Below, piece after piece: positions 8,192 to 56,188 of a stretch of 64,000 bases of DNA (position 1 is its first letter; every line of letters starts with the position of its first letter). The stretch comes from Thermoproteota archaeon. Its GTDB lineage: Archaea; Thermoproteota; Thermoprotei; Gearchaeales; Gearchaeaceae. Both the position numbers and the translations under genes were made by a program. The stretch is from NCBI GenBank assembly GCA_041640715.1, contig JBEPZU010000003.1, forward strand, positions 12,826-76,825. The letters are read 5' to 3'. A model generated the notes under the pieces. The model had not been told where the DNA came from and did not search any database. It saw only the letters and a program-made list of their open reading frames with translations.

Positions 8192-9484
8192 TTATTGTCT
8201 ATTCAAAAATACGGCCTTATTATTTCTCAAAAAATATTCTTCAGATAAGAGCACTTTGTCCCCGATTATCAACGCTTCCTTAGGTAAACTCCTTGAGTTG
8301 TATCTAGAAGCCATAGAATAACCATAAGCACCAGCGTTATGTATAGCTAATATATCTCCTTCTCTAGGCACTTTCATCTTCCTTTTCAAAGCGAATATAT
8401 CACCAGTTTCACATAGATTCCCTACTATTGTCACCTCAGCATCTCCTTCGCTATAAGGATCGTTGCAATTTATAATTTCATGATAGGCATTGTAGAGCAA
8501 GGGTCTTATCAAATGATTAAAACCGCTATTCACCCCTACTATGACTTCACCATACCTGATCTTGACGTCTGTTACCTCAACTAACAATAGTCCAGCGTCT
8601 GCTACTATGTATCTTCCAGGTTCAAAGGAGAGGGCTTCTATTTCTATTTTGCTCTCTTCTACTATTCGGCATAGTTTCTCAGAATAATAATCCAATGGAA
8701 AATCGTCCTGTTCCTTCTTATACCTTACTCCAGGTCCTCCTCCAAAATCTAAGAATTCGATTTCATGTCCTATCTCTTTAACTTCAAAGGCCTTCTTGAT
8801 CAATATTCTAGCAGTTTCCAAGAATTCATCAACTTCTTCCTTTGCTCTCCAATTGGAACCAACATGTTCATGCAACCCTTTAACTTTGAATCCATTTTCT
8901 TTAGCGAATCTCGCCACATCTTTGATTTCGTTTTCAGGTATGGAGAACTTGATAGGTATACCCTCATGTTCCTTACCTGCTGTAATAGTATGCCAGCTTT
9001 GACCTAGACCGCGAATTCCTGGATCTATCCTTATAGATATCTCGTTCTTCATGTTCAATTTCTGCATTTTTTTAAGGACAGATATCGAATCCACGTTTAT
9101 CCTTATCCTGTAATCAGCTATCCTTAGTAGATCCTGGTGACTTAAGCTAGAGCCTGTGAACAATATCTTTTCTTCTTCAAATCCTGTATTAATAGCAAGT
9201 TTGACTTCCTCAGGCGAGACCGCATCTATCCAAGATCCTTCTTCTTTTAGAAGATTTAGGATATTTGGATTTGAATTTGCCTTCATTGCATAATGAATCC
9301 TTACTTGTTTGTCTGTATTTTTCTTTAAGACATCATAAAATCTTCTATAATTTTCCAAGATCCTTTTCCCGTTATATACATAAAGAGGTGTTCCGAATTT
9401 ACCAGCAAGTTCTATCGCTGAATAACCTGCTATGCATAATTCTCCGTTTTTAACTTCAAGATGTCCTTTTATTTCCCACCACAT
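8192..9484 (-). CDS. lysA: Diaminopimelate decarboxylase.
   Basis: 430 aa. PLP-binding YAMKAN, EPGRYIVADAG and GNLCETGD are present. It is the last gene of the dap operon. Confidence 0.9.
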   Translation of the reverse strand: MWWEIKGHLEVKNGELCIAGYSAIELAGKFGTPLYVYNGKRILENYRRFYDVLKKNTDKQVRIHYAMKANSNPNILNLLKEEGSWIDAVSPEEVKLAINTGFEEEKILFTGSSLSHQDLLRIADYRIRINVDSISVLKKMQKLNMKNEISIRIDPGIRGLGQSWHTITAGKEHEGIPIKFSIPENEIKDVARFAKENGFKVKGLHEHVGSNWRAKEEVDEFLETARILIKKAFEVKEIGHEIEFLDFGGGPGVRYKKEQDDFPLDYYSEKLCRIVEESKIEIEALSFEPGRYIVADAGLLLVEVTDVKIRYGEVIVGVNSGFNHLIRPLLYNAYHEIINCNDPYSEGDAEVTIVGNLCETGDIFALKRKMKVPREGDILAIHNAGAYGYSMASRYNSRSLPKEALIIGDKVLLSEEYFLRNNKAVFLNRQ

Positions 9485-10274
9485 AGGCTTCCCCTCTTAG
9501 GATATACGCTACAGGTCCTTTCATGAATACTGTGTCATCATCATTAATCCTTATGAACAGACTTCCTCCTGGAAGTTTGACTTCCACTTCATTTGAGCAA
9601 AAACCTAGCTTATAGGCTACGAAAGAAGTGGCGCATGCTCCTGAGCCGCACGCTAAGGTTATCCCAACTCCTCTTTCCCAAACATTCAAGGAGATTTTAC
9701 CCTTGTTTTCTATTAAAGCGAATTCTACGTTAGTTCTATTAGGGAATTCTTCATGTTTTTCTATCAAACCTCCATATTCTCTCAGAAGCTTCTTCGCTTT
9801 TTCTTCATCTTCGAAGAAAACTATGAAATGCGGATTGCCTATGTTAGCGAAAATCCCTGAGAATTTCGCATCTTTAACCTTGATTTCCTTATTCTCTATA
9901 ATCTCGGCCTTACCCATGTTGACTCCTATCAGATCGTTTTCTATGAATACCTTTACCTTCTTAGCATTAGGCCCAACTTCTATTTCTTCTATTTCGCCTA
10001 TCAAAGATTTATCGAATAAATACTTCGCTATCATCCTTATTCCGTTACCGCACATTTCTGCTTCGCTACCATCAGGATTGAATATCCTCATCCTGAACCT
10101 TGTATCCTTGCCTTTGTTTATTACCAAAAGTCCATCCGAGCCTATTCCAAAGTTCTTGTCAGATAATCTAATTGCTAAGTCACTATAAACTGAGTTCAGT
10201 TCAGAATCTAGATCCTCGATTATTATGTAACTATTGCCCAAAGCGTGCATTTTGGTTATTTTTAGCTTCATCAT
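9456..10274 (-). CDS. dapF: Diaminopimelate epimerase.
   Basis: 272 aa. Motifs MHALGNSYIII, CGNGIR and CGSGACA include the two catalytic Cys. Confidence 0.9.
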   Translation of the reverse strand: MMKLKITKMHALGNSYIIIEDLDSELNSVYSDLAIRLSDKNFGIGSDGLLVINKGKDTRFRMRIFNPDGSEAEMCGNGIRMIAKYLFDKSLIGEIEEIEVGPNAKKVKVFIENDLIGVNMGKAEIIENKEIKVKDAKFSGIFANIGNPHFIVFFEDEEKAKKLLREYGGLIEKHEEFPNRTNVEFALIENKGKISLNVWERGVGITLACGSGACATSFVAYKLGFCSNEVEVKLPGGSLFIRINDDDTVFMKGPVAYILRGEAYVVGNKRTS

Positions 10275-11446
10275 AGGTTTTCCTCTATTATTTGGGAGGC
10301 CAAAGATATTTCCTCATCGCTAGCTGTTAAAGAGAATCTGATGAACTCATCAGCTTCATCCTTTCCTTCTTTTAACACTAAATATTTACCAGGTGTTGCG
10401 TTAATCCCTCTTTTTCTTTGTTCATCTATTTCGAGCAATCTCTTCGCGAAAGATACCGAATCTTGACCTATTTTAGTCCAAACGTATATCGAGGAAAGAG
10501 AATATGTTTTGAATCCTTTCTTCTTCAAAACTTTGGTCAAGATTCTCCTCCTTCTGTTATAGATACTTCTATTCTCTTCTACATGATTCTCATCGAGCAA
10601 GGCATGAACAGCTGCTTCTTGTATGGGATTCGCGATGCCTGAATCCATTTGTGTCTTTAACGCTGCGAAATATCTGATGAGATTTTCACCGCCTACTACG
10701 AAGCCTATCCTCAAACCAGTAGTACCGCTTCTCTTAGATAATGAATGAAAGGCTACGACGTTATCCCATGACTTAGAAGCCTCCAATATCGAAGAAGGCC
10801 TTTCTTCATCATATATTTCTATGTAAGCTTCATCTGAAGCGATTATCACATCATGATCACTAGCTAGGTCTATAAGTTTAGAATAGAATTCCTTCTTAGC
10901 TATAACAGTGGTAGGGTTGTTTGGGTAATTAATCCACATTAACTTTGGTTTGAATTTGTTGAATAATTCTTCTATATTTTCCAGCTCAGGCAAAAAGCCA
11001 TTCTTTTCTTTCAAATCATAATAGATTGGCTTACCTCCTGCAAACATCACGCCTGCTTTATAAGGCGGGTATCCTATAGAAGGCACTAATGCATAATCTC
11101 CTGGGTTTAGAAAAGCCATTGGGAAGTGAAATATCGCCTCCTTAGAACCGTTTGTGATGACTACTTGGTCGTCAGCATTTATTTCCAATCCAAACCTCTT
11201 TTTAAACCATTCACTCACCGCATTTCTGAGCTCTTTTATTCCTAGATACGGAGGGTATCCTGTATTCTTATATTTTTCAGCACCTATCTTTAATCCTTCT
11301 ACAGCTCCTTCATACAAATTTTTAGGATCTCCTACGCCTAGATCTATTACTCTAAATCCCTTCTTTACTGCATCGTTTTTCGCTTTGTCTACTTCTGCTA
11401 AGGAATAACTTAGGAAATTCTTTAAAACGTCGCTAGGTTCTATCAT
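10271..11446 (-). CDS. dapL: Class I/II aminotransferase, probably LL-diaminopimelate aminotransferase (DapL).
   Basis: 391 aa. SLSKRSGTTGLRIGFV matches the DapL SFSK-x-GFTG-x-R-x-G lysine motif. It sits between asd and dapF with 4-nt overlaps. Confidence 0.6.
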   Translation of the reverse strand: MIEPSDVLKNFLSYSLAEVDKAKNDAVKKGFRVIDLGVGDPKNLYEGAVEGLKIGAEKYKNTGYPPYLGIKELRNAVSEWFKKRFGLEINADDQVVITNGSKEAIFHFPMAFLNPGDYALVPSIGYPPYKAGVMFAGGKPIYYDLKEKNGFLPELENIEELFNKFKPKLMWINYPNNPTTVIAKKEFYSKLIDLASDHDVIIASDEAYIEIYDEERPSSILEASKSWDNVVAFHSLSKRSGTTGLRIGFVVGGENLIRYFAALKTQMDSGIANPIQEAAVHALLDENHVEENRSIYNRRRRILTKVLKKKGFKTYSLSSIYVWTKIGQDSVSFAKRLLEIDEQRKRGINATPGKYLVLKEGKDEADEFIRFSLTASDEEISLASQIIEENL

Positions 11447-12489
11447 AGATAACCTTTAGCCTTGAGAAATTCTCCTATCAAAATAGCTCCACCAGCTCCT
11501 CCCCTTATAGTATTGTTTCCCAATAAGACGAATTTGTAATCCAAGATATTGCATTTCCTTATTCTACCGACCACACTGGTCATACCATTTCCTATATCTC
11601 TATCTAGCTTTGGCTGCGGTCTATCTTCCTCGTTTCGTACAACTACTGGCTTGGCGTAAGAAGGTAGATTAAGCTTCCTTAGCGGATCGAAATCTTCTAA
11701 GCATCCTTTTAGTTCATCAATTTCAGGCTTTTCCTCAGTTTCTATTGAAACGACTTCCATATGTCCATCGCTTACGAATACTCTATTACAGCTTGCACTC
11801 ACTTTAATATCTGCCATCTTTATTCTATCTCCTTCTAGTTTACCTAAAATCTTCAAACTCTCCTTCTCTATCTTTTCTTCTTCTAAGGCTATGTAGGGTA
11901 TTATGTTATCTACTATATCTAGAGAAGCTACGCCAGGATATCCTGCACCGCTAAGGGCCTGCATGGTAACCACCATTACTCTTTTCAATTTGAACTTGTC
12001 ATGAACAGGCTTTAATGCCAAGCATAAATGTGTTGTAGAACAATTAGGATGAGTTATAATGAACCCTTTAAACCCTCTTCTCTTCTTTTGGACTTCTATC
12101 AAAGCGAGACTATCAAGATTTATTTCAGGTATTAACAAGGGGACGTCTTCATCCAATCTGTGATTCCTAGCGTTACTTATAACTATATAACCTTCTCTTG
12201 CGAATTCCTCTTCTATAGGTCCAGCTATGCTTGCATCTAATGCTGAAAAAACGATCTTGCAATTTAAGTTAGGAACACATTCCTTGACTTTAATTTCCTC
12301 GATTTCTTTGGGCATTTCATAAGATAACTTCCACTTTCCTTTCACAGCTTCTTTATAGCTTTTACCTGCTGACTTCTCAGAAGCCGCTAGTTCAGTTATC
12401 TGGAACCAAGGATGATTGGATAATAATCTAATGTATCTTTGTCCTACTATTCCCGTGGCTCCTAAAATACCAACAGGTATCCTATCCAT
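11443..12489 (-). CDS. asd: Aspartate-semialdehyde dehydrogenase.
   Basis: VGILGATGIVGQRYIRLL is the NAD(P)-binding motif and HPNCSTT carries the active-site Cys. The listed ORF extends to 12552, but the likely start is MDRIPVGILG at 12489, which overlaps the lysC stop by 8 nt. Confidence 0.85.
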   Translation of the reverse strand: MDRIPVGILGATGIVGQRYIRLLSNHPWFQITELAASEKSAGKSYKEAVKGKWKLSYEMPKEIEEIKVKECVPNLNCKIVFSALDASIAGPIEEEFAREGYIVISNARNHRLDEDVPLLIPEINLDSLALIEVQKKRRGFKGFIITHPNCSTTHLCLALKPVHDKFKLKRVMVVTMQALSGAGYPGVASLDIVDNIIPYIALEEEKIEKESLKILGKLEGDRIKMADIKVSASCNRVFVSDGHMEVVSIETEEKPEIDELKGCLEDFDPLRKLNLPSYAKPVVVRNEEDRPQPKLDRDIGNGMTSVVGRIRKCNILDYKFVLLGNNTIRGGAGGAILIGEFLKAKGYL

Positions 12490-13798
12490 TTTCAAAGAAC
12501 TCCTTATGTAATTCTCTAACGCAATGTTCAGCAACTTTTTCTTCCAAGGCAAAACCTAGGCTTATTTCAGAAGCACCTGCGGATATCATTTCAGCACTTA
12601 TACCTTCTCTTTCTAATACATTGAAAGTCCTCTCGATCACTTTAGGATTCTTAGTTACACCTCGTCCTACTAAAGCTAAGGTAGCCCTAGAATCCAATAT
12701 ATCTACTTTAGCTATTTTGCTCAATTCTTCATAGAGTTCTTCCTTGTAAAATTTCTCTTCAATTGTCAAGGAGACGTTTATCTCAGAAGTAGCTAGCATA
12801 TCTACAGGTATTTGGAGTTCATTGAAAATTGTGAACACCTTATGCAAAAAACCATGGACCATGAACATCTTGGGCGATTGTATATTTATTACTTTCATCC
12901 TGCTTTTTTTGACAACGGATATTACTTCGCCATATCTATTCACCTCTTCTTTTATTAAGGTACCCTTGAATTTGAGGTTAAAAGTATTCAAAACCCTTAC
13001 AGGTATCTCTTTGCTCTTCACGGGTATTATTGTTTTAGGGTGCAGAACTTTAGAGCCTAGGAAAGCAAGCTCGCTTGCCTCATCGTAATCAACTTCATCT
13101 AAGCTCCTAGCCTTTGGGCATAACTTAGGATCTGCAGTCATTATGCCATCCACATCTGTCCATATCTGGACTTCTTCTGCATTTACAGCCGAGCCTATTA
13201 TCGTAGCAGTATAATCGCTTCCTCCTCTGCCTAGCGTAGTTATTTTACCCTTTTTATCTTTAGCTATAAAGCCTGTAACTATGGGCAAAACATCAACCTT
13301 AGAGAAGAAATTAGCTAGATTCGAATATGATTCTTCTAGGACTTCCGCGTTACCGAAGTTAGAATTGGTTATTAAACCTATATCATAGCTGTTGAAAGCT
13401 TTGGCTTTTATTCCTCTATCATTGAAATAATTTGCTATTATCTTAGCGGAGAGCCTTTCCCCAAAGGACATCACCAAATCCAAGGTCTTAGCGTTTAGTT
13501 CTTTTAAGTAGGATATGCCTTTTAATACAATTTCAAGTTCCTCTAGTTCCTCTTTGATGATGTTTGGATTAAGACCTAATTCTGAAATTACGCTTTCATG
13601 TCTTTCTCTTATGGATGAACTATTGTAATTTCCTGAAGAGGCTTCTAAGGCTAGTCTTATCAAAGAGTCTGTAACACCATTCAAGGCTGATACTACGATT
13701 ATGAGTTTTTTGTGAAGTCTTTCCTTTACTATTTCAAAGAGCGTTTCTATTCTTTCTGCGCTACCTACCGAAGTTCCTCCAAATTTCATCACGATCAT
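12482..13798 (-). CDS. lysC: Aspartate kinase.
   Basis: 438 aa. MIVMKFGGTSVGSAERIE is the aspartokinase N-terminus. A C-terminal ACT-like regulatory region follows. Confidence 0.9.
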   Translation of the reverse strand: MIVMKFGGTSVGSAERIETLFEIVKERLHKKLIIVVSALNGVTDSLIRLALEASSGNYNSSSIRERHESVISELGLNPNIIKEELEELEIVLKGISYLKELNAKTLDLVMSFGERLSAKIIANYFNDRGIKAKAFNSYDIGLITNSNFGNAEVLEESYSNLANFFSKVDVLPIVTGFIAKDKKGKITTLGRGGSDYTATIIGSAVNAEEVQIWTDVDGIMTADPKLCPKARSLDEVDYDEASELAFLGSKVLHPKTIIPVKSKEIPVRVLNTFNLKFKGTLIKEEVNRYGEVISVVKKSRMKVINIQSPKMFMVHGFLHKVFTIFNELQIPVDMLATSEINVSLTIEEKFYKEELYEELSKIAKVDILDSRATLALVGRGVTKNPKVIERTFNVLEREGISAEMISAGASEISLGFALEEKVAEHCVRELHKEFFENG

Positions 13799-14544
13799 TT
13801 TAAGAAGATATCTCTGAATAGATCTCTGAACGAATAGAATCCTTTCTTATCTTTTATCCATTCAGCAGCTAAAATCGCACCCAAAGCAAAGCCTTTTCTA
13901 TTTTTCGCTTCATGCTTTAATTCTATGCTGTCATATTCGCTATCAAACCCAACGATATGCAATCCTGTTATGAAACCAGCTCTGAAACTAACTACATGTA
14001 GTTCTTCCTTCTCTATTCTCCTGTTTATCGTTTCGAATAAAAGTTTCTCCTTCCTTTTAACATTATTCAATATGATTTCCCCTATCGTTTTAGCAGTACC
14101 TGAAGGAGAATCTACCTTTTGTCTATGATGACCCTCGAGAATGTATATGTCATACCAATCAGCCTTGTCCATAAGTTTAGCAGTTTGCTCTATTAAGTAG
14201 AAGAATATGTTAACACCTATCGAGAAATTTGGGCTATATATAAATCCTATTTCGTTTTCTTCTATTATTCTTTTAGCTTTTTCTAATTCTTCATACCATC
14301 CTGTGGTTCCTACCACGATGTTTTTCTTCAACGAAGCTACTCTTTCTATGTTCCCTAAAACAGCTTTAGGGGATGTGAAGTCTATAGCTACGTCTACCTC
14401 CTTCATGGAATCCTCGTCTATGGATCTATGGGTTGCTTCAGGATCCGTCGGATCTATTATAGATGATACAATTATGCCCTTTTCCCTTGATACTTCATGG
14501 ACTGCTCTTCCCATTTTACCATAGCCTATTATCGCTATCCTCAT
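13795..14544 (-). CDS. dapB: 4-hydroxy-tetrahydrodipicolinate reductase.
   Basis: 249 aa. MRIAIIGYGKMGRAV, DVAIDFTSP and EGHHRQKVDSPSGTA are all present. Confidence 0.9.
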   Translation of the reverse strand: MRIAIIGYGKMGRAVHEVSREKGIIVSSIIDPTDPEATHRSIDEDSMKEVDVAIDFTSPKAVLGNIERVASLKKNIVVGTTGWYEELEKAKRIIEENEIGFIYSPNFSIGVNIFFYLIEQTAKLMDKADWYDIYILEGHHRQKVDSPSGTAKTIGEIILNNVKRKEKLLFETINRRIEKEELHVVSFRAGFITGLHIVGFDSEYDSIELKHEAKNRKGFALGAILAAEWIKDKKGFYSFRDLFRDIFLK

Positions 14545-15434
14545 TTCTTAGAAGGCAGATATTCCTCGTAAAGAGCCAACGTCTTCTTAACCTTCTCTAA
14601 ATTACTAGGTTGCAGGTTAGTTAAAGGAAGCCTACAAGGTCCAGCTTTCATCCCTGCGAGATTCATCATTGCTTTTATAGGTATGGGATTTGTCTCTACG
14701 AAGGCTGCCTTGAATATGGGAAGTAGCTTGTAATGGATGGATCTGGCTTTTTCGAAATCTCCCTTCAATGCACTTTCTACCAGTTCTACCACCAATCTAG
14801 GAAGTAGATTGCTTATAACAGATATTACTCCTTTTCCTCCCAAAGCCATTATAGGCAAAGTCAAGTTATCATCGCCGCTTAGCAAGATTATCCTATCTCC
14901 TAAGGATTCGATGATGTCCATGACCTGAGCCATGTTTCCCGTCGACTCTTTGATTCCCACTATGTTTTTCAACAAAGAAAGCCTGACCAATGTTTGAACT
15001 TCTAAATTAACTGCAGTTCTACCTGGTATGTTGTAAATTATTATGGGTATGTTAACAGATTCGCTAATACTTTTGAAATGCTGATAAAGACCTTCTTGTG
15101 TAGGTTTATTGTAATAGGGTGCCACAATTAACAAAGCGTCAGCACCTAGATCTTCAGCCTGTTTGGATAATCTTATAGCTTCAAGAGTAGAATTCGTACC
15201 AGTACCGACTATTACGGGTAATTTGCCATTGGCTTCATCTATTACAGTTTTTATTATGTTGATTCTCTCGTTTTCCTTGATGACAGGGGATTCTCCTGTG
15301 GTACCTAAAGGAACTAGACCATGAACACCATTTTCTATTTGATATCTTATGTTCTCCCTAAGTCCTTCATAATCTACTTCATAATCCTCTCTGAATGGTG
15401 TTATTAGCGCTGTAATACAACCAACAAATCTATC
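14541..15434 (-). CDS. dapA: 4-hydroxy-tetrahydrodipicolinate synthase; the 5' end is unresolved.
   Basis: The open frame continues upstream of the listed TTG start and reads RFVGCITALITPFREDYEVDYEGLRENIRYQIENGVHGLVPLGTTGESP...LLIVAPYYNKPTQ, a classic DapA N-terminus. There is no ATG, GTG or TTG in frame before the conserved region. The only ATG, at 15450, is in another frame, so the start coordinate is approximate. Confidence 0.8.
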   Translation of the reverse strand, partial: DRFVGCITALITPFREDYEVDYEGLRENIRYQIENGVHGLVPLGTTGESPVIKENERINIIKTVIDEANGKLPVIVGTGTNSTLEAIRLSKQAEDLGADALLIVAPYYNKPTQEGLYQHFKSISESVNIPIIIYNIPGRTAVNLEVQTLVRLSLLKNIVGIKESTGNMAQVMDIIESLGDRIILLSGDDNLTLPIMALGGKGVISVISNLLPRLVVELVESALKGDFEKARSIHYKLLPIFKAAFVETNPIPIKAMMNLAGMKAGPCRLPLTNLQPSNLEKVKKTLALYEEYLPSKK

Positions 15435-15464
15435 TCTTTCCCCATTGCATTTCCCTATTATTTA

Positions 15465-43985: not shown

Positions 43986-44974
43986 AGCTCACTCACCTCT
44001 TTAAGAATATTTTTAATTTCTTTAGCTGTATATCTTTTACCTAATAGCTTATCCAATATTCTAGATTTTAAAGATAATTTAGGTGAGCAACCACATGCAA
44101 AAGGATGTCCTCCTCCATTGAATTTTCTAGCTATAGGAAGCAGGTTTATCTCTTTATTTAATCCTGCATAAAATGAAACAGATCTGTTTGAATATATCAC
44201 TACCGTGAAATCTAGTTTATGCTCTAAGCTTGCATACTTACCGCTTATACTCCCTGGAAGCTTGCTTTTTCTAACATCTATTATCGCATATCTATAACCA
44301 TTTTTTGTGGTAAAGACTTTGAGTTTCTTTACGGTTTCTTTTATTTTACTGTCATTCTTTTCCTCTTTACTTGCCCATTTAATTATTTTTTCATCGTTAA
44401 TCCTTCCTTCGCTTAGAGCCTCAAATACGTATTGTAATCTCTTTTTATTTCTTATAGCTCTGTTTATGTTTATAGTTTCTTTTAAAGAATAGTTAGCGCT
44501 ATCTGCATCGTTAGCTATGATAACTAATTCATTTATCACTTCATCACTACTTTCTAAGGTTTTAGCTACAAGTTCGGCTGCACTTATAGTTGGTTCTACC
44601 ACGATCTTAGTTTTGTTTCTAAGCGTTTCTAGAGCTTTTTCGGTCCATTGATGATGGTCTATCCAAGTTATTTCACAACCAGATTTTATCAATCTATCAA
44701 GATCACTCGCTATAATTCTGAGATATTCATCATTTGGCGACAAATCTGAGATGAAGATCTTTTTGTCATTGACATTAAGAGATGATAAATGAAAGGGTAA
44801 GCTCCTAGGAGAAGAAGGTATGTAAAATCCCTCTTTGTAGTTTCTCTTTATTATTGATGCACAAATTATACCGTCGACATCATCGTGAGAAATTATTATT
44901 ATACTTTGATCTGTAGTTATTTTTCTTTTTTCCTTTCTTTTAATTAATTCTTTTATCTTTGAAAATATTTGCAT
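43982..44974 (-). CDS. DHH/DHHA1-family phosphoesterase (NrnA/RecJ-like).
   Basis: 330 aa. SHDDVDGIICAS is motif I, WIDHHQ is the DHH motif, and GGGHPFACG is the DHHA1 motif. Confidence 0.75.
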   Translation of the reverse strand: MQIFSKIKELIKRKEKRKITTDQSIIIISHDDVDGIICASIIKRNYKEGFYIPSSPRSLPFHLSSLNVNDKKIFISDLSPNDEYLRIIASDLDRLIKSGCEITWIDHHQWTEKALETLRNKTKIVVEPTISAAELVAKTLESSDEVINELVIIANDADSANYSLKETININRAIRNKKRLQYVFEALSEGRINDEKIIKWASKEEKNDSKIKETVKKLKVFTTKNGYRYAIIDVRKSKLPGSISGKYASLEHKLDFTVVIYSNRSVSFYAGLNKEINLLPIARKFNGGGHPFACGCSPKLSLKSRILDKLLGKRYTAKEIKNILKEVSEL

Positions 44975-46410
44975 TAGATGCGAATCAATGAGGCTCTATT
45001 TAAAATTTTAGACATGTAAGGGCCTTCGAGTGAATATCCGAATTTCCTATAATAACCCCTAACACCTATGGCGCTTATTATTACCATTTTGTTTATTCCA
45101 TATTCGAAAAAGGCAATCCTCTCAGCTTCAGCTAAAAGGGCTTTTCCTATTCCTTTGTGCTGCCATGCTTCTTCCATCCTCAATCCCACAGGAACAGCTA
45201 AACCATAAACATGGAGTTCTCTAACGATTGCAGCGCCTTTTGCTTCTTTTTTCCAAGAATTCTCTGGTATTCTTAATCTAAGGTAACCTATTAAGGTCAA
45301 ATCTTCGTCCTCAAAGGACAAGAAGTATTCATTCCCTCCAAGGGTTCTGATTTCCCTTCTAATTAGCTTTATTTTATTCGGCATTTTAATCTTCTCTTTT
45401 ATTTGTCTTATTCCTATTTCCCTACATCTAGTGCAAAGGCACCTTATTCCTTCTTTTTTTAATTTCTTATCGATATACTCTCTCAAATCTCCTCTTTTTA
45501 TACCTGCTATCACTAAGCTAGATGGTAAATCTCTTTGAACCCTGTTTATTCTCACATAAGGGGGGAGGAACTTTGTTACTTCACGCATTATTTCTGCCAC
45601 TTCGTCCTCTTGAATTGGTGAATACTTACCTTCAAGGTATTCTTCATAAAGCTCTGAACCAGGCATGACGAGCGTTGGGTAAATTTTAATCATGTCTGGA
45701 GAAAATCCCTCATTGTAAAATATTGTTCTAAATGTTTCGATGTCTTTTTCTTTATTAGAACCAGGCAGTCCTAGCATTATATGATAACAGACCTCAAACC
45801 CAGCATCTTTGAGTAACTTCGTTGCTTTTATAACTTCTTTAACACCATGGCCTCTCTTTACCCTTTCTAATACATCATCGAAAGTAGATTGAACGCCTAT
45901 CTCTACCCTTGTAACACCTAGTTCTAGTAATTCTTCTAATATTGTTTCATCCAACCAATCAGGTCTTGTTTCAACGGAAATGCCTACGCATTTTATCAAG
46001 GAATTTTCATTTTTGTTTATTTCTTCCTTATAATCAAAGTTTTCATTGTAATTCACTTTAGGAAAGTCATTTAAGGCTTTTACAGCTGAAGCTATAAACC
46101 ACCTTCTATAATTTTTAGGCAAGGCTGTGAAAGTTCCACCTACCACTATTATTTGTGATTTCGAAGGAAAATGACCCATTAGCAAATACTGCTTTAATCT
46201 TTCTATTGTTTGATAGTAGGGATGGAATGCATTCATCGCTGCTCTATTGACCGCTGGTTCTCCTATCAAATAGCTTTTAGGTCCTCCATAATTGGGTCCT
46301 CCGAAGCAATATGTGCATTTTGCTGGGCAATCAAAAGGAGCAGTTACAATAGCAACTACGGATATTCCTGATGCTGCTCTTATTGGTTTCTTTATCTCTT
46401 TTAATTCCAC
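44974..46410 (-). CDS. elp3: Elp3-like radical SAM / GNAT tRNA modification enzyme.
   Basis: 478 aa. The radical SAM motif is CPAKCTYC and the C-terminal GNAT region contains QHKGIGKALLAEAERIA. Confidence 0.85.
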   Translation of the reverse strand: MELKEIKKPIRAASGISVVAIVTAPFDCPAKCTYCFGGPNYGGPKSYLIGEPAVNRAAMNAFHPYYQTIERLKQYLLMGHFPSKSQIIVVGGTFTALPKNYRRWFIASAVKALNDFPKVNYNENFDYKEEINKNENSLIKCVGISVETRPDWLDETILEELLELGVTRVEIGVQSTFDDVLERVKRGHGVKEVIKATKLLKDAGFEVCYHIMLGLPGSNKEKDIETFRTIFYNEGFSPDMIKIYPTLVMPGSELYEEYLEGKYSPIQEDEVAEIMREVTKFLPPYVRINRVQRDLPSSLVIAGIKRGDLREYIDKKLKKEGIRCLCTRCREIGIRQIKEKIKMPNKIKLIRREIRTLGGNEYFLSFEDEDLTLIGYLRLRIPENSWKKEAKGAAIVRELHVYGLAVPVGLRMEEAWQHKGIGKALLAEAERIAFFEYGINKMVIISAIGVRGYYRKFGYSLEGPYMSKILNRASLIRI

Positions 46411-46465: not shown

Positions 46466-47392
46466 GTGAAAATAAGGAAATTTAAGTTTTCAGACCTAGC
46501 ATCCTTAGTTAATTTGTACAATAACTTCATGAATTTTGATCCTGATTTCGTAGAGCTAAATGAAGAGAGTTTTAAAGCCAAATTCATAGACATGCCGTTT
46601 TGCTCTAGAGATTTAATTTTCGTTGCAGAACAAGGATCAATATTGGGGTGTATTTTTGCCGATGTAGATCCTTTAATGGAAGAGAAGTTCAAGAAAAGGA
46701 TCGCAGTAATAGATTTATTATTAGCTAAAAGGGAAGTTTTCCATGAAGTTGCTTCATCTCTTTTGGACTATTTAACAGTTAAGTTAAGGGATTTGAAGGT
46801 GGAAGAAATTCAAGTTCATTTCGTAGCAGAAAACCTCGAACAAGAAAACTCATTTTATAGAGAAAATTTCGAGTTGTCTAGGGTGTGGTATTACATGGAA
46901 GCAGAGTCTAGACCTTTTATGTTAGAGGATCTCCCTGAACATTTTTCTTGGCAACATTTGAAATTTAAAGGCAGAAAAGCGAATGCTAGGAAATGGATAG
47001 AATGTTATAACGAAGTCTTCAAAGACCATCCTTATATGAGGCCTTTAAGATATGAGGAACTTAAGATCTATTCTCTTGAAGAGAACTTCGATCCTACGGG
47101 ATACTTTGGTATATTTAAAGATGATGAAAATAAGTTCATAGCTGAATGTTCTTGTGAAGCTGAACCTGCAAAAAACAAAGGAGTGATATGGACAGTTGGT
47201 GTGCTTAAGGAATATAGAAATAGAGGTCTTGGGGAACTTCTAGTTAAAAAAGCCATCGATTGGATTTATAACAAAGGCTTGAAAAAGGCATCCATACACG
47301 TAGATAGTCAAAACGAGATAGCCTTCAAGCTATATTCTAAGCTAGGGTTTAAACCTATAAGGAGGAGGTTATTCTATTCTAAAATCCTCTAG
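46466..47392 (+). CDS. Tandem-GNAT N-acetyltransferase (MshD-like architecture).
   Basis: 308 aa. The C-terminal GNAT has EYRNRGLGELLVKKAIDW...FKLYSKLGF. The N-terminal half has a second, degenerate GNAT-like region. Confidence 0.6.
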   Translation: MKIRKFKFSDLASLVNLYNNFMNFDPDFVELNEESFKAKFIDMPFCSRDLIFVAEQGSILGCIFADVDPLMEEKFKKRIAVIDLLLAKREVFHEVASSLLDYLTVKLRDLKVEEIQVHFVAENLEQENSFYRENFELSRVWYYMEAESRPFMLEDLPEHFSWQHLKFKGRKANARKWIECYNEVFKDHPYMRPLRYEELKIYSLEENFDPTGYFGIFKDDENKFIAECSCEAEPAKNKGVIWTVGVLKEYRNRGLGELLVKKAIDWIYNKGLKKASIHVDSQNEIAFKLYSKLGFKPIRRRLFYSKIL

Positions 47393-48559
47393 TATTCCTG
47401 TAATGCTAGAGAAAATAGAGTAATTTGTTCTAAGTTCTTTAATTGCACTTTCTCCTAGATTCTTCTTTTCTGCATAATCCCTAAGTTCGATCCAATTTTC
47501 TATAGCTTTTCTTACATTCAAATTATTTTCTATATTTTTAAGAAATTTTTTTCTGTAATATATAATTCTTTTTATTATATTTTTGTCATCTTCTCCTTTG
47601 TTTATTTTTATTTTCTTAAGTTTATTTTTTATTTTTTTATAATATTTTAATTTATTTTGATCGAAATTATAATCTTTATTTATTTTCATTGATAAGAAAT
47701 AAATTCTAATATCATCTACATCATATTTCTTGATTATTTCTCTGAAATATATTGTGTTCCCCAACGATTTTGACATTTTTTCTCCCTTGAATTTAAGTAA
47801 ACCGGTATGAAGGAAATTCCTAGATACAGGATATTCTCCTTTAAAATATTCTCCTAAAGTTAATATGTATTCGTGATGCGGAAATATCAAATCCTTAGCT
47901 CCTATATGCAAATCGCAATAGCCGCCTAAAACATAGTTTATTACCGTGAAATCTTGAAGATGCCATCCTATCATTCTTCTTCCAAAGCTCGTGTTTATTT
48001 CGCCATCTTTCAATGAATACCATAGCTTAAAGTCTGCTGGATTTCTTTTGTTCTCAGCAGGTTCTAATAAAACATTTAGTATTCTTTGTTTATCAATTCC
48101 TGAAAGTTTTCCTATGTTATTTGAAAGTGAAATATCGCAATATATTCCTTCTTCGAGTTCATAGGAATAGCCTTTTTTCATAAGATCTTGTATTATTCGC
48201 TTCGATTCCTCTGAAAGCTCAGAAGGTTTTATTGGAATGAAGTGCTTTATTCCTAGAACTTTCAAATCTTCATTTATTCTTCTGAAATATCTTTCTACTA
48301 TTTCGTTTTCATCGATTTTTTCTTGAATAGCTCTTTCTATTATTTTTATGTCCATATCGGTGAAATTGATAACGAAGATGGTTTCATAACCCTTGAATCT
48401 AAAGTATCTATTGATTAGGTCTGCTATTAACAGGACTCTTAAATGCCCTAGATGAAGATCATCATAAAGAGTAGGGCCGCAGACGAATATCTTTATGGAA
48501 TTTTCAAGGGGCTTGAACTTTTCGAATTTTCCGTGAATTCTATTGTATAATCTGAGCAT
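47369..48559 (-). CDS. Cysteinyl-tRNA synthetase-family class I ligase; short form with the zinc-site Cys replaced.
   Basis: 396 aa. FVCGPTLYDDLHLGHL is the HIGH region, HIGAKDLIFPHHE and EKMSKSLGN are present, and WHLQDF stands where CysRS has WHIECS. Only ~128 aa follow KMSKS. Confidence 0.7.
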   Translation of the reverse strand: MLRLYNRIHGKFEKFKPLENSIKIFVCGPTLYDDLHLGHLRVLLIADLINRYFRFKGYETIFVINFTDMDIKIIERAIQEKIDENEIVERYFRRINEDLKVLGIKHFIPIKPSELSEESKRIIQDLMKKGYSYELEEGIYCDISLSNNIGKLSGIDKQRILNVLLEPAENKRNPADFKLWYSLKDGEINTSFGRRMIGWHLQDFTVINYVLGGYCDLHIGAKDLIFPHHEYILTLGEYFKGEYPVSRNFLHTGLLKFKGEKMSKSLGNTIYFREIIKKYDVDDIRIYFLSMKINKDYNFDQNKLKYYKKIKNKLKKIKINKGEDDKNIIKRIIYYRKKFLKNIENNLNVRKAIENWIELRDYAEKKNLGESAIKELRTNYSIFSSITGILEDFRIE

Positions 48560-48595
48560 AAGCGGATTTATTTCTTTAGTTAATTAAATTTTATA

Positions 48596-48838
48596 ATGAA
48601 GTTAGTTTTAAAGAACGAGAAGGATCTCTTGAGATACATTTCTTCTTTGAATGTAGATGAAGGTTTAAGGATATTTCAAGGAGATTTTGAGTTCATCATA
48701 ACTAGGTATGACTTGAATTTCTACCTCGAAGTAAGGTTTAAAAATGGAGTATCTAAATTCATCTATAAAACTGAAAATGAAGTTTTAACTAAATTAAAAG
48801 AATTTTTAATTTTCCCTCTAACTATAGAATTTTATTAA
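48596..48838 (+). CDS. Hypothetical small protein.
   Basis: 80-aa ORF with no motifs; it sits between convergent neighbours. Confidence 0.3.
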   Translation: MKLVLKNEKDLLRYISSLNVDEGLRIFQGDFEFIITRYDLNFYLEVRFKNGVSKFIYKTENEVLTKLKEFLIFPLTIEFY

Positions 48839-52891: not shown

Positions 52892-55800
52892 ATGGGTAGG
52901 CTTATACTAGGCATTCTAATTCTAATCATATTCATCCTTTCCTTCAACTCAAGTTCAATTTCTAAGAATAGCAATGGAGAAGCACTTACTGATCATTTAT
53001 ACTTGAGAAATCTAGGTCCTGAAATCCTAAAGCAGTTAGAGGAGAACAATTTCAGTTATGAAGACTTAGCCACTGGTTTGAAGATAAAAGGAACCGTAAA
53101 AGATTATGAAAGAACTTTTGGTATCCCTATTCAATTTGAAGATGGTAAGATTTCCTATCCACCCAAAAGCGAACCAATCTCCTTGAACTTTATGAGCGAT
53201 GAAAATCCCTATGAACCTTTGGTAGATTATGCAGACCAAGGTCTCTCTCCAGATGTCTTGAAGAGAGCCTATGGTATAGATAGGCTTCATTCAGAAGGAT
53301 ATAAAGGCGAAGGGATTAGAATAGCTATCGTAGTAGCCTATGGGAGTCCTACTATAACTGATGATCTAAGGCAGTTTTCTATTCAATTTGGTCTTCCTGA
53401 AGCAAACTTAGAAATAATATATCCAAACGGAAATCCTAATGTAGAAAATGAGAAATGGGCATTGACCACGAACCTAGTTTTAGAATGGATTCACGCAATA
53501 GCCCCTCTTGCGACTAAATACTTAATCGTTGCTAAAGATTCAGGTTCCAGCTTAGAAGATGCTATGGTTTATTCATTCACTAAAGATTATGACATAATAG
53601 TCTTTCCCTTCGGTAAAAACGAGAGCAGCATGGATAGAGGAGTCATGAATTACCTGAGTTACAATATAAGGAATATCGCCAACAAAGGAACTGTAGTTAT
53701 AGCTCCTGTAGACGATTCAGGCAATAACTTGATCTTGTATCCTTCTTCTGATCCCTATGTCTTGAGCGTAGGAGGTACTATGCTATACTTAGATAACAAT
53801 GGGTACTATGCCTATGAGAAGTCTTGGGACAAGAGTTTTGGATCTAAAAGTGAAGTCTTCAAAAGACCTCCATGGCAAGAAGTAATAGGGCTAGGAGAAA
53901 ATGACGGTAGAGCTTTCCCTGATGTATCTATGGCAGCAAGCAACGGATTTAAGATTTTCTTCAGAGGTTCTTTGATCAATCTAAAGGGCAATGCAGCGGC
54001 TGCTTCTCATTTCGCATCTCTCTTAGCTCTCTCATTCCAGATAGCGAATAAAAGATTTGAGAATTTAGCTAGGATGCTTTATGAGATTTATTCCTCAAGT
54101 TTTTATTCGGGTTTATTCAACGATATAAAGCTAGGAGAGAGGACTGCAGAAGGATGGGATTACGCTACAGGAATAGGTTCTACTAAGGCTTATAATCTTG
54201 CTCATTTCATAGCTAAGGAATTTCTAACACTTTCTATAAACTATAGCGGTGCAAGCTATCCTCCTTATTTTTTAATCGATAACCAAGCTTATCCTACGCC
54301 CATAAAGCTCAATCTGATGAGGAACTTTACTCATAGATTAGAAGCTCAAGAGTATTTGTATGAAAGCGGATTGAAGAGATATGCCTTTAAAGCTTGGAAT
54401 GGAAGTTTAGAAAGTAACCAAAGAGTTCTGTTCATTCCGATCGTTAAAAATTATGAATTAACAATAGAGTATAAGGTTCAGTATAACGTAATCGTCAATT
54501 CTAACTATAGTATCGTCACTGGTGCAGGATGGTATGACCAAGGCTCTATCATCACTATAAGCTTGGATAACACGATTAGTTATATCTCTAATTATACAAG
54601 AGCCATATTCTTAGGTTGGGAAGGGATAGGCTTGAATAGTTACAGCGGAACTTCCAAAAACTTCTCTTTAAGAGTAGATAGTTGGGTTATTGAAAATGCA
54701 ATCTGGAAAATTCAACATTTCGTTCAGGTAATATCAGATTTCTTCGGGAATAGTAGCGGTTGGTACGATGAAAAATCAAGATTTAATTTCACCATAGAAG
54801 ACCCTTATTACGTATCAGATGAGGAAAGATACATTGTGAAAAAATGGCTTGTTCTGCTCAATAATACAAATGCCTTTTACTTGGAGGGCAATGGGATAAG
54901 CCTTGAAGTCAATGCTCCTATGACAATAAAGCCTATTTTCATTAGGCAATTCAAGTTATCTTTCAGTTCTAATATTCCATTGGAGAAATTAAAAGGTTCG
55001 CTTTGGTATGATGAGAATTCTATAGCTCATTTCTATACTGAGTTATTTCTCTATGAAACTTCCAATAGAACAAGATACGTATTTTTATCCCTTTCCTTAG
55101 ACGGCGAAACTTTGAATACGAACGAGTTATACATCAAAATGGACAGGCCTCATCATATAGAAACAAATTATAAGGTTCAGCATTATATCTCAGTTCAAAG
55201 TCCTTTCTACACAATCTTTGGTGCAGGATGGTATGACCAAGGCTCTATCGTCACGATAAGCTTAAGCTATACAGAATATTACATAAACAACTCCACTAGG
55301 TATTATTTTAAGAATTTCAACGTAAGCGAATATTTGGACTTCAAAAGAAGCGATATAGCAATGTTGAAGATCAAGGTAGAGAAGCCTTTGCACATAGTTG
55401 CCAATTGGGTATTGCAATATTACGTATATTTGCATAACAGGTACGGCAATGCAATAGGTTCAGGTTGGTATGATGCTGGTTCAATAGCTGCTATTTCCGT
55501 AGAGCCAAGCTATATGCCTCTATCAGAGAAATCCAGATTGGCTTTCACCCATTGGTTAATAGATGACCAAGAATATTATGGTGCATTTGTGATCGTTGAT
55601 AAACCTCTTAGAGCGGAGGCTGTTTATTCTCTTCAATATCTAGTCAATATCGATCTCAGAAACATGAAAGACGAAAGAATCGCAGGTAATATTATCTTAG
55701 AATTTCTAGATCCGAGATTGAGAGTCTACTATTTTAATAATACTTCTGTTTGGCTAATAGGAAACGTATACTGGAAACTAAATAAAGTCATTTTGGAAGG

Positions 55801-56188
55801 AAGAAGCTTTAAAGTAGAAAACGTCAGCTTTTTCGTGAATTCTCCTTTGGATTTGAAGGTTAAATTAAATATAATTGATTTAGAGATCTTTGTGAGAAGC
55901 TTATTCGGTTTGCCCATTAAAGACTTCGAGATCGAGGTCAATGCTTCGAATTACGTCTTTAGGGTTTCTACAGATGCTGAAGGTAGGGCTTTAGTGAAGT
56001 ATGTGGATCCCGGTCAAACTAAGCTTCGTTATAAGACTATTTTAGGTTATGTAGAAGAAGGGATTGGAGAAAGCGATAATAAAGTCATTACAATTTTTTC
56101 ATTTTACCCTGATTTCTTCGTATTCTTGCTTATTGCTTTGCTAGGTTTCATGCTTTTCTTAGTTAGAAAATTGCAGAAATGGATTTAA
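52892..56188 (+). CDS. Secreted, C-terminally membrane-anchored sedolisin (S53)-like protein with four internal repeats; possibly catalytically inactive.
   Basis: 1098 aa. An N-terminal signal-like helix is followed by a prokumamolisin-like region and an S53 signature (GEGIRIAIVVAYGSPTITDDLRQFSIQFGLP ... DDSGNN ... SVGGT). Four ~75-100 aa repeats with G-x-GWYD follow. The C-terminal TM is LLIALLGFMLFLV, and there are about 18 N-x-S/T sequons. Confidence 0.65.
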   Translation: MGRLILGILILIIFILSFNSSSISKNSNGEALTDHLYLRNLGPEILKQLEENNFSYEDLATGLKIKGTVKDYERTFGIPIQFEDGKISYPPKSEPISLNFMSDENPYEPLVDYADQGLSPDVLKRAYGIDRLHSEGYKGEGIRIAIVVAYGSPTITDDLRQFSIQFGLPEANLEIIYPNGNPNVENEKWALTTNLVLEWIHAIAPLATKYLIVAKDSGSSLEDAMVYSFTKDYDIIVFPFGKNESSMDRGVMNYLSYNIRNIANKGTVVIAPVDDSGNNLILYPSSDPYVLSVGGTMLYLDNNGYYAYEKSWDKSFGSKSEVFKRPPWQEVIGLGENDGRAFPDVSMAASNGFKIFFRGSLINLKGNAAAASHFASLLALSFQIANKRFENLARMLYEIYSSSFYSGLFNDIKLGERTAEGWDYATGIGSTKAYNLAHFIAKEFLTLSINYSGASYPPYFLIDNQAYPTPIKLNLMRNFTHRLEAQEYLYESGLKRYAFKAWNGSLESNQRVLFIPIVKNYELTIEYKVQYNVIVNSNYSIVTGAGWYDQGSIITISLDNTISYISNYTRAIFLGWEGIGLNSYSGTSKNFSLRVDSWVIENAIWKIQHFVQVISDFFGNSSGWYDEKSRFNFTIEDPYYVSDEERYIVKKWLVLLNNTNAFYLEGNGISLEVNAPMTIKPIFIRQFKLSFSSNIPLEKLKGSLWYDENSIAHFYTELFLYETSNRTRYVFLSLSLDGETLNTNELYIKMDRPHHIETNYKVQHYISVQSPFYTIFGAGWYDQGSIVTISLSYTEYYINNSTRYYFKNFNVSEYLDFKRSDIAMLKIKVEKPLHIVANWVLQYYVYLHNRYGNAIGSGWYDAGSIAAISVEPSYMPLSEKSRLAFTHWLIDDQEYYGAFVIVDKPLRAEAVYSLQYLVNIDLRNMKDERIAGNIILEFLDPRLRVYYFNNTSVWLIGNVYWKLNKVILEGRSFKVENVSFFVNSPLDLKVKLNIIDLEIFVRSLFGLPIKDFEIEVNASNYVFRVSTDAEGRALVKYVDPGQTKLRYKTILGYVEEGIGESDNKVITIFSFYPDFFVFLLIALLGFMLFLVRKLQKWI
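54470..55560 (+). repeat. Intragenic tandem-repeat region (4 G-x-GWYD modules), including an exact 30-nt duplicate.
   Basis: ggtgcaggatggtatgaccaaggctctatc occurs identically at 54521..54550 and 55220..55249. The protein repeats are VQYNVIVNS..TGAGWYDQGSI, QHFVQV..NSSGWYDEKS, VQHYISV..FGAGWYDQGSI and LQYYVYL..IGSGWYDAGSI. Confidence 0.7.

Follow-up and report, generated by a model that had tools for sequence, protein, structure and literature searches.

A CysRS-derived ligase linked to a tandem GNAT acetyltransferase in a thermoproteote archaeon: a possible analogue of the MshC/MshD pair

A review that considers CysRS paralogues with non-canonical roles names only two, MshC and CysRS* (PMC9437257), and Aravind and colleagues have asked if MshC stands alone (PMC2922099). 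MshC (L-cysteine:GlcN-Ins ligase; PDB 3C8Z/8HFM), from the bacterial pathway to the antioxidant mycothiol, is a CysRS-derived enzyme of ~400 aa that has no anticodon-binding domain and carries HIGH and KMSKS motifs; its residues C43, C231 and H256 bind zinc, and T46 and T83 bind the amine of cysteine (PMC9736012). Its partner MshD (mycothiol synthase, TIGR03448; PDB 2C27/1OZP), a tandem GNAT of ~310 aa, acetylates Cys-GlcN-Ins. CysRS* of Desulfobacterales, at least as the work of Mukai et al. 2017 is relayed in PMC9437257, likewise lacks the anticodon-binding domain, is coupled to SelC*/SelB* and charges tRNA. As for archaea, neither mycothiol genes nor mycothiol are found in them according to a 2020 review (PMC7278568).

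The locus analysed here, from a hot-spring archaeon, brings comparable proteins together as neighbours. Within the window (the whole 64-kb stretch of DNA that was analysed), a CysRS-derived class I ligase of 396 aa with an ATG start (47369..48559, minus strand), recognised from its ORF, Pfam and NCBIfam scores and motifs, converges with a tandem GNAT acetyltransferase of 308 aa with a GTG start (46466..47392, plus strand), recognised from its ORF, family scores and AF2 model, and the 3' ends of the two ORFs overlap by 24 bp (47369..47392). This convergent arrangement had been correctly reported in a preliminary description, which overlooked the 80-aa ORF lying 36 bp upstream of the ligase as well as several changes in the ligase itself (E238 to Ile/Thr, E208 to Gln, and those in GRPGWH and HYR). 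The small ORF (48596..48838, plus strand), a conserved orphan, is divergent from the ligase, and the AT-rich spacer of 36 bp between the two start codons (48560..48595) is presumed to be their shared promoter region. No account of the three-gene module turned up in literature searches on mycothiol and other thiol pathways of Thaumarchaeota or ammonia-oxidising archaea (AOA).

Origin and active site of the ligase

That the ligase is of CysRS type, as first proposed from its motifs, is borne out by a 232-bit match to Pfam tRNA-synt_1e and by the presence of HLGH, FPHHE, KMSKSLGN and GWHLQDF. Its alignment with E. coli CysRS spans residues 1-395 of 461 and the C-terminal anticodon-binding domain is therefore absent, in keeping with the lack of a match to PF23493 or PF09190 (CysS_C) in the ligase; the Rossmann core, CP domain, SC-fold and helical bundle are retained. 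The short C-terminus is thus real, but it is not the distinguishing feature it was taken for, since lengths of ~400 aa are common in CysRS of TACK archaea scoring above the NCBIfam cysS cutoff, and many archaeal CysRS above that cutoff also do without the anticodon-binding domain.

A similar qualification applies to the loss of a zinc-ligating Cys (WHLQD in place of WHIEC), which had been singled out at the outset. Asp does occupy this position, but roughly one in two of the closest archaeal CysRS has it too: ~55 of the best 120 homologues are full-length CysRS (465-475 aa) that read WH[IV]ED and PHHEAE and, among the matches listed, Asp is also found at the position of E. coli C209 in ordinary CysRS encoded in genomes of Methanobrevibacter, Methanoregula and Methanomassiliicoccales. 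Sequence comparison indicates that the ligase descends from archaeal CysRS of this Asp type (TIGR00435; with short ~400-aa forms in Nitrososphaerota and Bathyarchaeia), and not from MshC. Overall fold and order of domains agree, Asp at E. coli 209, Ala227 and Ser115 are held in common, the signature columns match archaeal Asp-type CysRS by 25 to 3, and the Kimura distance is 1.82 to MshC versus ~1.16 to archaeal CysRS, MshC being more distant from the ligase than any CysRS examined. NJ phylogenies recover the ligase family as a monophyletic group (100/100) with a long stem; the nearest neighbour of this group differed between the 122-taxon and 234-taxon trees, so its placement rests on the signature columns.

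This family, of which 5.8 billion sequences yield just seven protein clusters, departs from its relatives at positions that short archaeal CysRS ending at the same point retain (E208, E238, GRPGWH, HGGA/G and HYR). Three of the four zinc ligands of CysRS (C28, C209 as Cys or Asp, H234 and E238) have counterparts in the ligase (C27, D203 and H228 only); the place of E238, the fourth ligand, is taken by Ile232 (Ile or Thr in 7/7 family members), Gln202 stands at E208, GRPGWH has become GM(V/I)GWH, HYR297-299 has become KIN, and R168, conserved in CysRS, is lost. In all, 29 of 82 near-universal columns (at least 93% conserved in ~225 CysRS) are altered in the family, among them Glu238, which is 100% conserved in those enzymes. 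The window ligase (253.4 bits), P0003 (222, labelled by PGAP only as 'class I tRNA ligase family protein') and P0007 (251) score 87-118 bits below the equivalog cutoff of cysS (TIGR00435, 340 bits), in contrast to short sister CysRS (361-419) and to ten further housekeeping proteins of the window, 10/10 of which exceed their own NCBIfam cutoffs. Composition has drifted as well: FYMINK, the share of residues with AT-rich codons (Phe, Tyr, Met, Ile, Asn and Lys taken together), is 0.41-0.45 for the ligase versus a window mean of 0.345.

Much of the catalytic centre is kept. Invariant in 7/7 family members are HIGH and KMSKS (the class I signature, as HLGH and KMSKSLGN), C27, T30, T67, W199, H200, D203, H228, H229 and E230, which include all the zinc/cysteine-site residues present in the ligase (C27, T30, T67, W199, D203 and H228), and the 105 invariant columns of the family alignment cluster at the ATP, zinc and cysteine sites. 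As the alignment reads, the residues for adenylation and cysteine binding are conserved and the active site appears to be under selection. The equivalents of C43, H256, T46 and T83 of MshC are all among those kept; both proteins have lost Glu238, have an aromatic residue at position 237 (FPHHEYS in MshC, FPHHEYI in the ligase) and retain the helical bundle. MshC differs in keeping GRPGWH and HYR, which are altered in the ligase family, and in having a second zinc Cys (C231) where the ligase has Asp.

Three linked genes that diverge fast and together

The 308-aa protein is a tandem GNAT with one acetyl-CoA site. Its AF2 model (pLDDT 94.7) has the two GNAT domains announced in the preliminary description, and its top structural matches are tandem GNATs: MAB_4324 (PDB 7Q3A; TM 0.84), glucosamine N-acetyltransferase (5KF1; TM 0.74) and MshD (2C27; TM 0.73, E 1e-16) in Foldseek. 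The linker motif NEAF(K/R)DH(Y/W)G is common to the GNAT family of the window and to MAB_4324 (sequence identity ~18%), to which the tandem GNATs 3TT2 and 5KF1 are related. The N-terminal domain reads as having no acetyl-CoA loop, and the C-terminal domain carries the sole such loop in the protein (RNRGLG), together with NEVFKDH, for which the family consensus reads NEAF(K/R)DH; its C-S-C-E strand and its Tyr290 are invariant. As modelled, this is the fold of MshD, a tandem GNAT with a catalytic C-terminal domain, in a protein of a different family: against NCBIfam MshD (TIGR03448) the window GNAT scores 59.7 bits versus a cutoff of 163, the C-terminal half alone matching. The ligase for its part reaches 167.5 bits against NCBIfam MshC (TIGR03447), the cutoff being 485, and the two are not orthologues of MshC and MshD. 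What survives of the suggestion that they are an MshC/MshD-like pair is the parallel in architecture and the shared loss of Glu238, and the best reading is that the pair may be analogous to MshC/MshD, with an independent origin. In actinobacteria, mshC and mshD are usually non-adjacent, unlike the adjacent genes of the window, and MAB_4324 is not known to be linked to an aaRS-like ligase.

The GNAT family comprises 12 protein clusters, and in two assemblies a T7/T8 homopolymer difference splits the gene by a frameshift. P0131, in which the GNAT is fused to a redoxin/AhpC-like N-terminus, was considered as a link to thiol redox and rejected, since the duplication IQAHFIQAHF at the junction, on a contig of 4.8 kb, makes it probably a chimeric assembly. 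The extra conserved small protein of the module, which MshC/MshD do not have, is known from four representatives; it carries a SLNVDEGLRI motif and an invariant C-terminal end (...FPxxxE-x-Tyr) and is predicted to adopt a compact alpha/beta fold that is nearest to B. subtilis YkuJ. The idea that it is a split-off C-terminal domain of CysRS was rejected on reading the protein, which seems beta-rich and lacks GIxLEDxxxGTxW, presumably the motif of that domain.

All three genes of the module have a common narrow phyletic distribution and occur on the same contigs; the block is intact in a member that is 44-45% identical despite rearranged flanks, and the 3' overlap of ligase and GNAT (24-36 bp) is preserved in all family loci. 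They are also the least conserved of 12 syntenic genes (mean identity 40, 51 and 52% versus 57-79% for the other nine). A GNAT neighbour was found at 0/153 control CysRS loci among the matches listed, these loci coming from profile scans of genome contigs (with the family alignment) and metagenome contigs (with the sister alignment). Among the matches listed, the genome-contig scan, which matched on the generic pattern [ED]LI[FY]PHHE, yielded ordinary CysRS loci and no family member, and the metagenome-contig scan was dominated by generic CysRS. The evidence supports what had been surmised from the window, that the linkage of ligase and tandem GNAT is genuine and not a matter of chance.

Similar linkage is seen in three sister lineages, where short CysRS-like genes are accompanied by a GNAT and/or a small-ORF homologue. 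In two Nitrososphaerales lineages the GNAT follows, and related genes in Nitrososphaerales adjoin the small-ORF homologue, and also the GNAT where the contig reaches far enough. These sister ligases resemble ordinary CysRS and pass the cysS cutoff, so the module may have arisen around a housekeeping CysRS. As for the surroundings, the GNAT has Elp3 as its immediate neighbour in every locus, and a gene for a Trbp111-like tRNA-binding protein lies close by; both are slowly evolving, ordinary housekeeping genes. Unlike what might be expected of a mycothiol-type pathway, no acceptor-building gene (MshA/MshB-like glycosyltransferase or deacetylase) is conserved in the block across family loci and flanks, and a GT4 gene 9 kb from the module occurs in one lineage only. 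PADLOC models of anti-phage defence gave no match to any of the three proteins at E <= 0.01.

Possible roles of the module

Our preferred reading, which is held tentatively, is that the ligase is an active, neofunctionalised descendant of an Asp-type CysRS, forming an accessory module whose other two parts are the tandem GNAT and the YkuJ-like protein of 80 aa. In such a module, (i) the ligase zinc would be bound by Cys27, Asp203 and His228, with the substrate thiolate as fourth ligand in a three-plus-one arrangement as in MshC, (ii) the ligase would convert L-cysteine and ATP to Cys-AMP, (iii) it would then hand the cysteinyl group on to an amine acceptor other than tRNA, which could be a small molecule or possibly the 80-aa protein and (iv) the C-terminal domain of the GNAT would use acetyl-CoA to acetylate a free amine of the product, as MshD does on Cys-GlcN-Ins. 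Cysteine as the substrate, an acceptor other than tRNA and the order of the reactions are inferred. Counting against an accessory ligase are (i) the lack of conserved acceptor-building genes in the block, (ii) the sister ligases, linked to the same module and yet above the cysS cutoff, (iii) the lack of a second CysRS in the 64-kb window and the 20-kb flanks of relatives, (iv) retention of the tRNA-contacting helical bundle of CysRS (which MshC also retains) and (v) the splitting of the GNAT by the T7/T8 difference in some assemblies.

The alternative that survives best, which we nevertheless disfavour on indirect evidence and consider unlikely, is that the ligase is the sole, unusually divergent CysRS of its host, a short Asp-type enzyme that charges tRNA-Cys, with the GNAT and the small protein regulating or assisting it (e.g. 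by acetylating the enzyme or as a binding partner). Such an enzyme would be expected to keep HIGH, KMSKS, three zinc ligands and the contacts with the cysteine amine, all of which are intact; CysRS above the equivalog cutoff include enzymes with Asp209 and enzymes of ~400 aa, the sister ligases of the same module type also score above it, and P0178 (409 aa, on contigs >1 Mb, without a GNAT neighbour) is housekeeping-like. A tblastn search of the window with canonical CysRS found the ligase alone, and no second CysRS was seen in these 64 kb of the source genome or in the 20-kb flanks of relatives, but this search covered <10% of the genome. Candidate companions, the best-scoring canonical CysRS P0017, P0010, P0008, P0011 and P0060 (the last in a bacterial gltX-cysE-cysS-sigH type operon), were set aside as coming from other samples or organisms with no link to the family genomes, and proximity of accession numbers, used for pairing proteins from one MAG, gave no pairs. 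What argues against a sole CysRS is the loss of Glu238 and 28 other near-universal positions, the failure to reach the cysS cutoff where other housekeeping proteins reach theirs, the compositional drift, and a rate of evolution exceeding that of all nine syntenic neighbours.

Less probable again, and in our view doubtful, is a specialised tRNA-dependent paralogue comparable to CysRS* or GluQRS, both without an anticodon-binding domain, which would aminoacylate a particular tRNA or modified nucleoside, the GNAT acetylating the alpha-amine of the aminoacyl-tRNA or using aminoacyl-tRNA as a donor. The truncation that the ligase has in common with CysRS*, as the latter is summarised in PMC9437257, fits this possibility, as do the SC-fold and helical bundle and the tRNA-related neighbourhood. 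In that same summary, however, CysRS* is partnered by SelC*/SelB*, whereas the partners of the ligase are a GNAT and a small protein; searches of the 64-kb window with ARAGORN and Rfam detected neither a tRNA gene nor any other RNA gene, and the family loci hold no SelB-like gene. The tRNA-related neighbours, moreover, are ordinary slow-evolving housekeeping genes, the GNAT is structurally nearest to acetyl-CoA-dependent small-molecule tandem GNATs and not to Fem-type or L/F-transferase-type enzymes, and HYR297-299 and R168 of CysRS are lost. That the ligase is merely what is left of a duplicated CysRS, decaying or non-catalytic and without any enzymatic function, would account for the fast evolution, the AT-biased drift, the subthreshold scores and the frameshifted GNAT, but is very improbable given that the ligase ORF is intact in all seven clusters, even where identity to the window protein drops to 44-45%, that the invariant columns lie mainly at the ATP, zinc and cysteine sites, and that gene order and overlap are conserved.

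Were the ligase the sole CysRS after all, a strictly conserved zinc-ligand Glu and about one third of universal CysRS residues would be dispensable for translation. If instead it is an accessory ligase, a bolder proposal, on which we would not yet rely, is that TACK archaea have independently evolved a counterpart of the MshC/MshD steps, the product being an N-acetylcysteinyl conjugate, either an as yet undetected archaeal low-molecular-weight thiol or the 80-aa YkuJ-like protein in cysteinylated or acetylated form (with its invariant C-terminal Tyr taking part in recognition), and the window family being the most derived version, with the ligase fully out of translation. An accessory ligase would in any case point to a new archaeal thiol or a new protein modification, and would represent a second, independent transition from CysRS to a ligase paired with a tandem GNAT, a clear case in which metabolism has convergently recruited an enzyme of translation.

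A divergent CysRS-type ligase

The 396-aa ligase ORF (47369-48559, minus strand) and the 308-aa GNAT ORF (46466-47392, plus strand), which lie in a window with a G+C content of ~36%, converge, with 24 bp of overlap. The ligase is a CysRS-type class I ligase (232 bits against Pfam tRNA-synt_1e), whose closest solved relatives are CysRS structures. Since it is alignable to residues 1-395 of the 461 in E. coli CysRS, its domains are the Rossmann core, CP domain, SC-fold and helical bundle, and the C-terminal anticodon-binding domain is missing. In the GNAT, there is one clear Pfam domain, in the C-terminal half, and the AlphaFold model (pLDDT 94.7) contains two; the top PDB matches of this model are tandem GNATs, that is, MAB_4324 (TM 0.84), glucosamine N-acetyltransferase (0.74) and MshD (0.73). 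The sizes, motifs, orientation and architecture given for both proteins in the preliminary description are thus borne out by ORF coordinates, Pfam, the E. coli CysRS alignment and the AlphaFold model.

The loss of the zinc-site Cys (WHLQD), which had been put forward as a distinguishing cue, does not hold as such because many archaeal CysRS have Asp at position 209. The zinc ligands of E. coli CysRS, C28, C209, H234 and E238 (numbering checked by alignment to the ligase), correspond to C27, D203 (within WHLQD), H228 and Ile232. Among the 120 nearest homologues, 53 have WHIEC/PHHENE and ~55 have WH[IV]ED/PHHEAE, the latter being nearly all of ordinary length (465-475 aa), annotated as CysRS and from Nitrososphaeria, Aigarchaeota and Bathyarchaeia. 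The Asp-209 variant is also found in CysRS of Methanobrevibacter, Methanoregula and Methanomassiliicoccales genomes. CysRS of ~400 aa are likewise common in TACK archaea, where they score 361-419 against NCBIfam cysS, above its cutoff of 340. A motif search picked up a GWNSPWG stretch in one Asp-type CysRS group (P0009, P0010, P0012, 472 aa; locus L016). Asp-type genes in this analysis are archaeal except for a 453-aa CysRS-like ORF (GWHIED/FPHHEAE) in the actinobacterium Streptomyces sp. ST2-7A (L033, NZ_JAJUWS010000012.1), which may have arrived by transfer or be a paralogue.

The ligase family comprises seven protein clusters among 5.8 billion sequences (389-401 aa, 44-60% identity to the window protein), beyond which scores fall sharply from 353 to 250 bits, with canonical CysRS next. 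The three members tested score 222-253 against cysS, all under the cutoff, and the sole annotated one is named 'class I tRNA ligase family protein' by PGAP. Comparison of ~225 CysRS gives 82 alignment columns with conservation of at least 93%; 53 of these are unchanged in the family and 29 differ, the latter including E238 to Ile/Thr, E208 to Gln, GRPGWH to GM(V/I)GWH, G225 to Ile/Leu, A240-Q241 to Leu-Leu, W254 to Phe, R168 to Leu/Ile and HYR297-299 to KIN. This divergence is not general to the lineage, since the other housekeeping proteins of the window that were checked reach their curated cutoffs in 10/10 cases. When 12 syntenic genes are compared over four genomes, the three fastest-evolving are the small ORF, ligase and GNAT (40%, 51% and 52% mean identity), the remaining nine ranging from 57% to 79%. 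Invariant in the family are HIGH, KMSKS, W199, C27, T30, T67 and H228, and four of these residues (C27, T30, T67, H228) are equivalent to C43, T46, T83 and H256, which in MshC contact zinc and the cysteine alpha-amine (PMC9736012). This preserved catalytic site points to a working adenylate-forming enzyme, whose second half-reaction or specificity would be altered.

A conserved three-gene module

The third gene, an 80-aa orphan (48596-48838), lies 36 bp upstream of the ligase, divergent from it, and just four representative clusters of it occur in a set of 1.84 billion proteins. GNAT clusters number no more than 12 and are found on the contigs that carry the ligase. Every family locus shows the order small ORF, ligase, GNAT, Elp3, DHH, UbiX, and this order is also kept in the 44-45%-identical member, whose flanks are rearranged. 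In sister lineages, short CysRS-like genes from two Nitrososphaerales/Thaumarchaeota MAGs (P0116, P0120) have a 250-255-aa GNAT directly downstream, with a 4-bp overlap in one locus, and this GNAT matches the family GNAT over 178 aligned columns (hhalign probability 94%). When a profile of the family small protein was run against 12,612 ORFs of all non-family loci, the four best matches were small ORFs by short CysRS-like genes, adjoining and divergent in L121 and L023, 2.7 kb off in L020/L021. These small ORFs have in common an xLDxDEG(I/V)R motif and, at the C-terminus, an invariant P-x5-Tyr. A GNAT neighbour was found at 0/153 control CysRS loci (crude profile), and P0178, a short CysRS on contigs >1 Mb, has neither GNAT nor small-ORF neighbours. 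The ligase-GNAT pairing noticed originally is therefore part of a conserved, narrowly distributed three-gene module.

Several observations concern individual genes. Two assemblies (L002, L003) of a genome that matches L001 at 99.99% identity have the GNAT gene broken into ORFs of 142 and ~185 aa at about 11565-11593 (L001 11582) by a T7 versus T8 homopolymer difference, reflecting either misassembly or a frameshift that occurs naturally. In P0131 (NCBI, 4.8-kb contig), a GNAT homologue is joined to a redoxin/AhpC-TSA-like N-terminus, but the duplicated IQAHFIQAHF at the junction makes a chimeric assembly more probable than a genuine thiol-redox fusion. Elp3 (tRNA U34 modification; radical SAM + GNAT; 44974-46410, minus strand, 586 bits), which always adjoins the GNAT in family loci, is without the N-terminal extension of other archaeal Elp3 (478 versus 539 aa). 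The window also encodes a 1098-aa ORF with a hydrophobic N-terminus (52892-56188, plus strand) and a complete DAP-pathway lysine operon (lysA, dapF, asd, lysC, dapB, dapA; 8192-15464), in which the dapA frame (14541-15464, minus strand) stays open for ~100 codons 5' of its first ATG/GTG/TTG, implying a non-standard start codon or a sequence error.

Role of the ligase

The best-supported reading is that the window ligase is already out of translation, or on its way out, with a role in an accessory module, where it would be a cysteine-adenylating enzyme acting with an acetyl-CoA-dependent tandem GNAT. We infer that cysteine is its substrate and that its acceptor is not a tRNA; no acceptor-building genes are linked to the module. 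The main rival, that it is the organism's sole, very atypical CysRS, is weakened by the sub-cutoff cysS scores, the changed columns, the fast evolution and the conserved module with GNAT and small ORF, but keeps some probability; no canonical CysRS was found in the 64 kb covered of this genome or the 20-kb flanks of relatives. A specialised tRNA-dependent role is possible, although the 64-kb window has no tRNA gene and the structural relatives of the GNAT act on small molecules.

Relation to MshC

M. smegmatis MshC, which reads GWHVECS and FPHHEYS, resembles the ligase family (FPHHE[YFL][IT]) in the loss of Glu238 and in an aromatic position 237. However, the MshC model scores the ligase at 167 bits (cutoff 485), and MshC is farther from the family (distance 1.82) than any CysRS examined (~1.16 for archaeal CysRS, 1.59 for E. 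coli CysRS); the distance between MshC and E. coli CysRS is 1.08. At the seven columns separating Cys-type from Asp-type CysRS, used for type assignment, the family has 25 matches to the Asp type and 3 to the Cys type. NJ trees recover it as monophyletic (100/100 bootstraps) with a long stem, and the lineage placed next to it varies between trees. Model score, distance and Asp-type columns rule out MshC orthology and make the likeness, judged from sequence, a convergent one. The MshC likeness originally proposed survives in architecture, not in descent.

The module shares the logic of MshC/MshD, a ligase plus a tandem GNAT, but its ligase derives from archaeal Asp-type CysRS and there is an extra small-protein partner. 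MshC and CysRS* are the only CysRS paralogues in one review (PMC9437257), while another, on archaeal thiols, reports no MshC in archaea and a single MshD InterPro match, from uncultivated samples (PMC7278568); our literature searches found no description of the three-gene module. We class the module with other aaRS-derived ligases that are paired with a GNAT, as a known kind in a new form.
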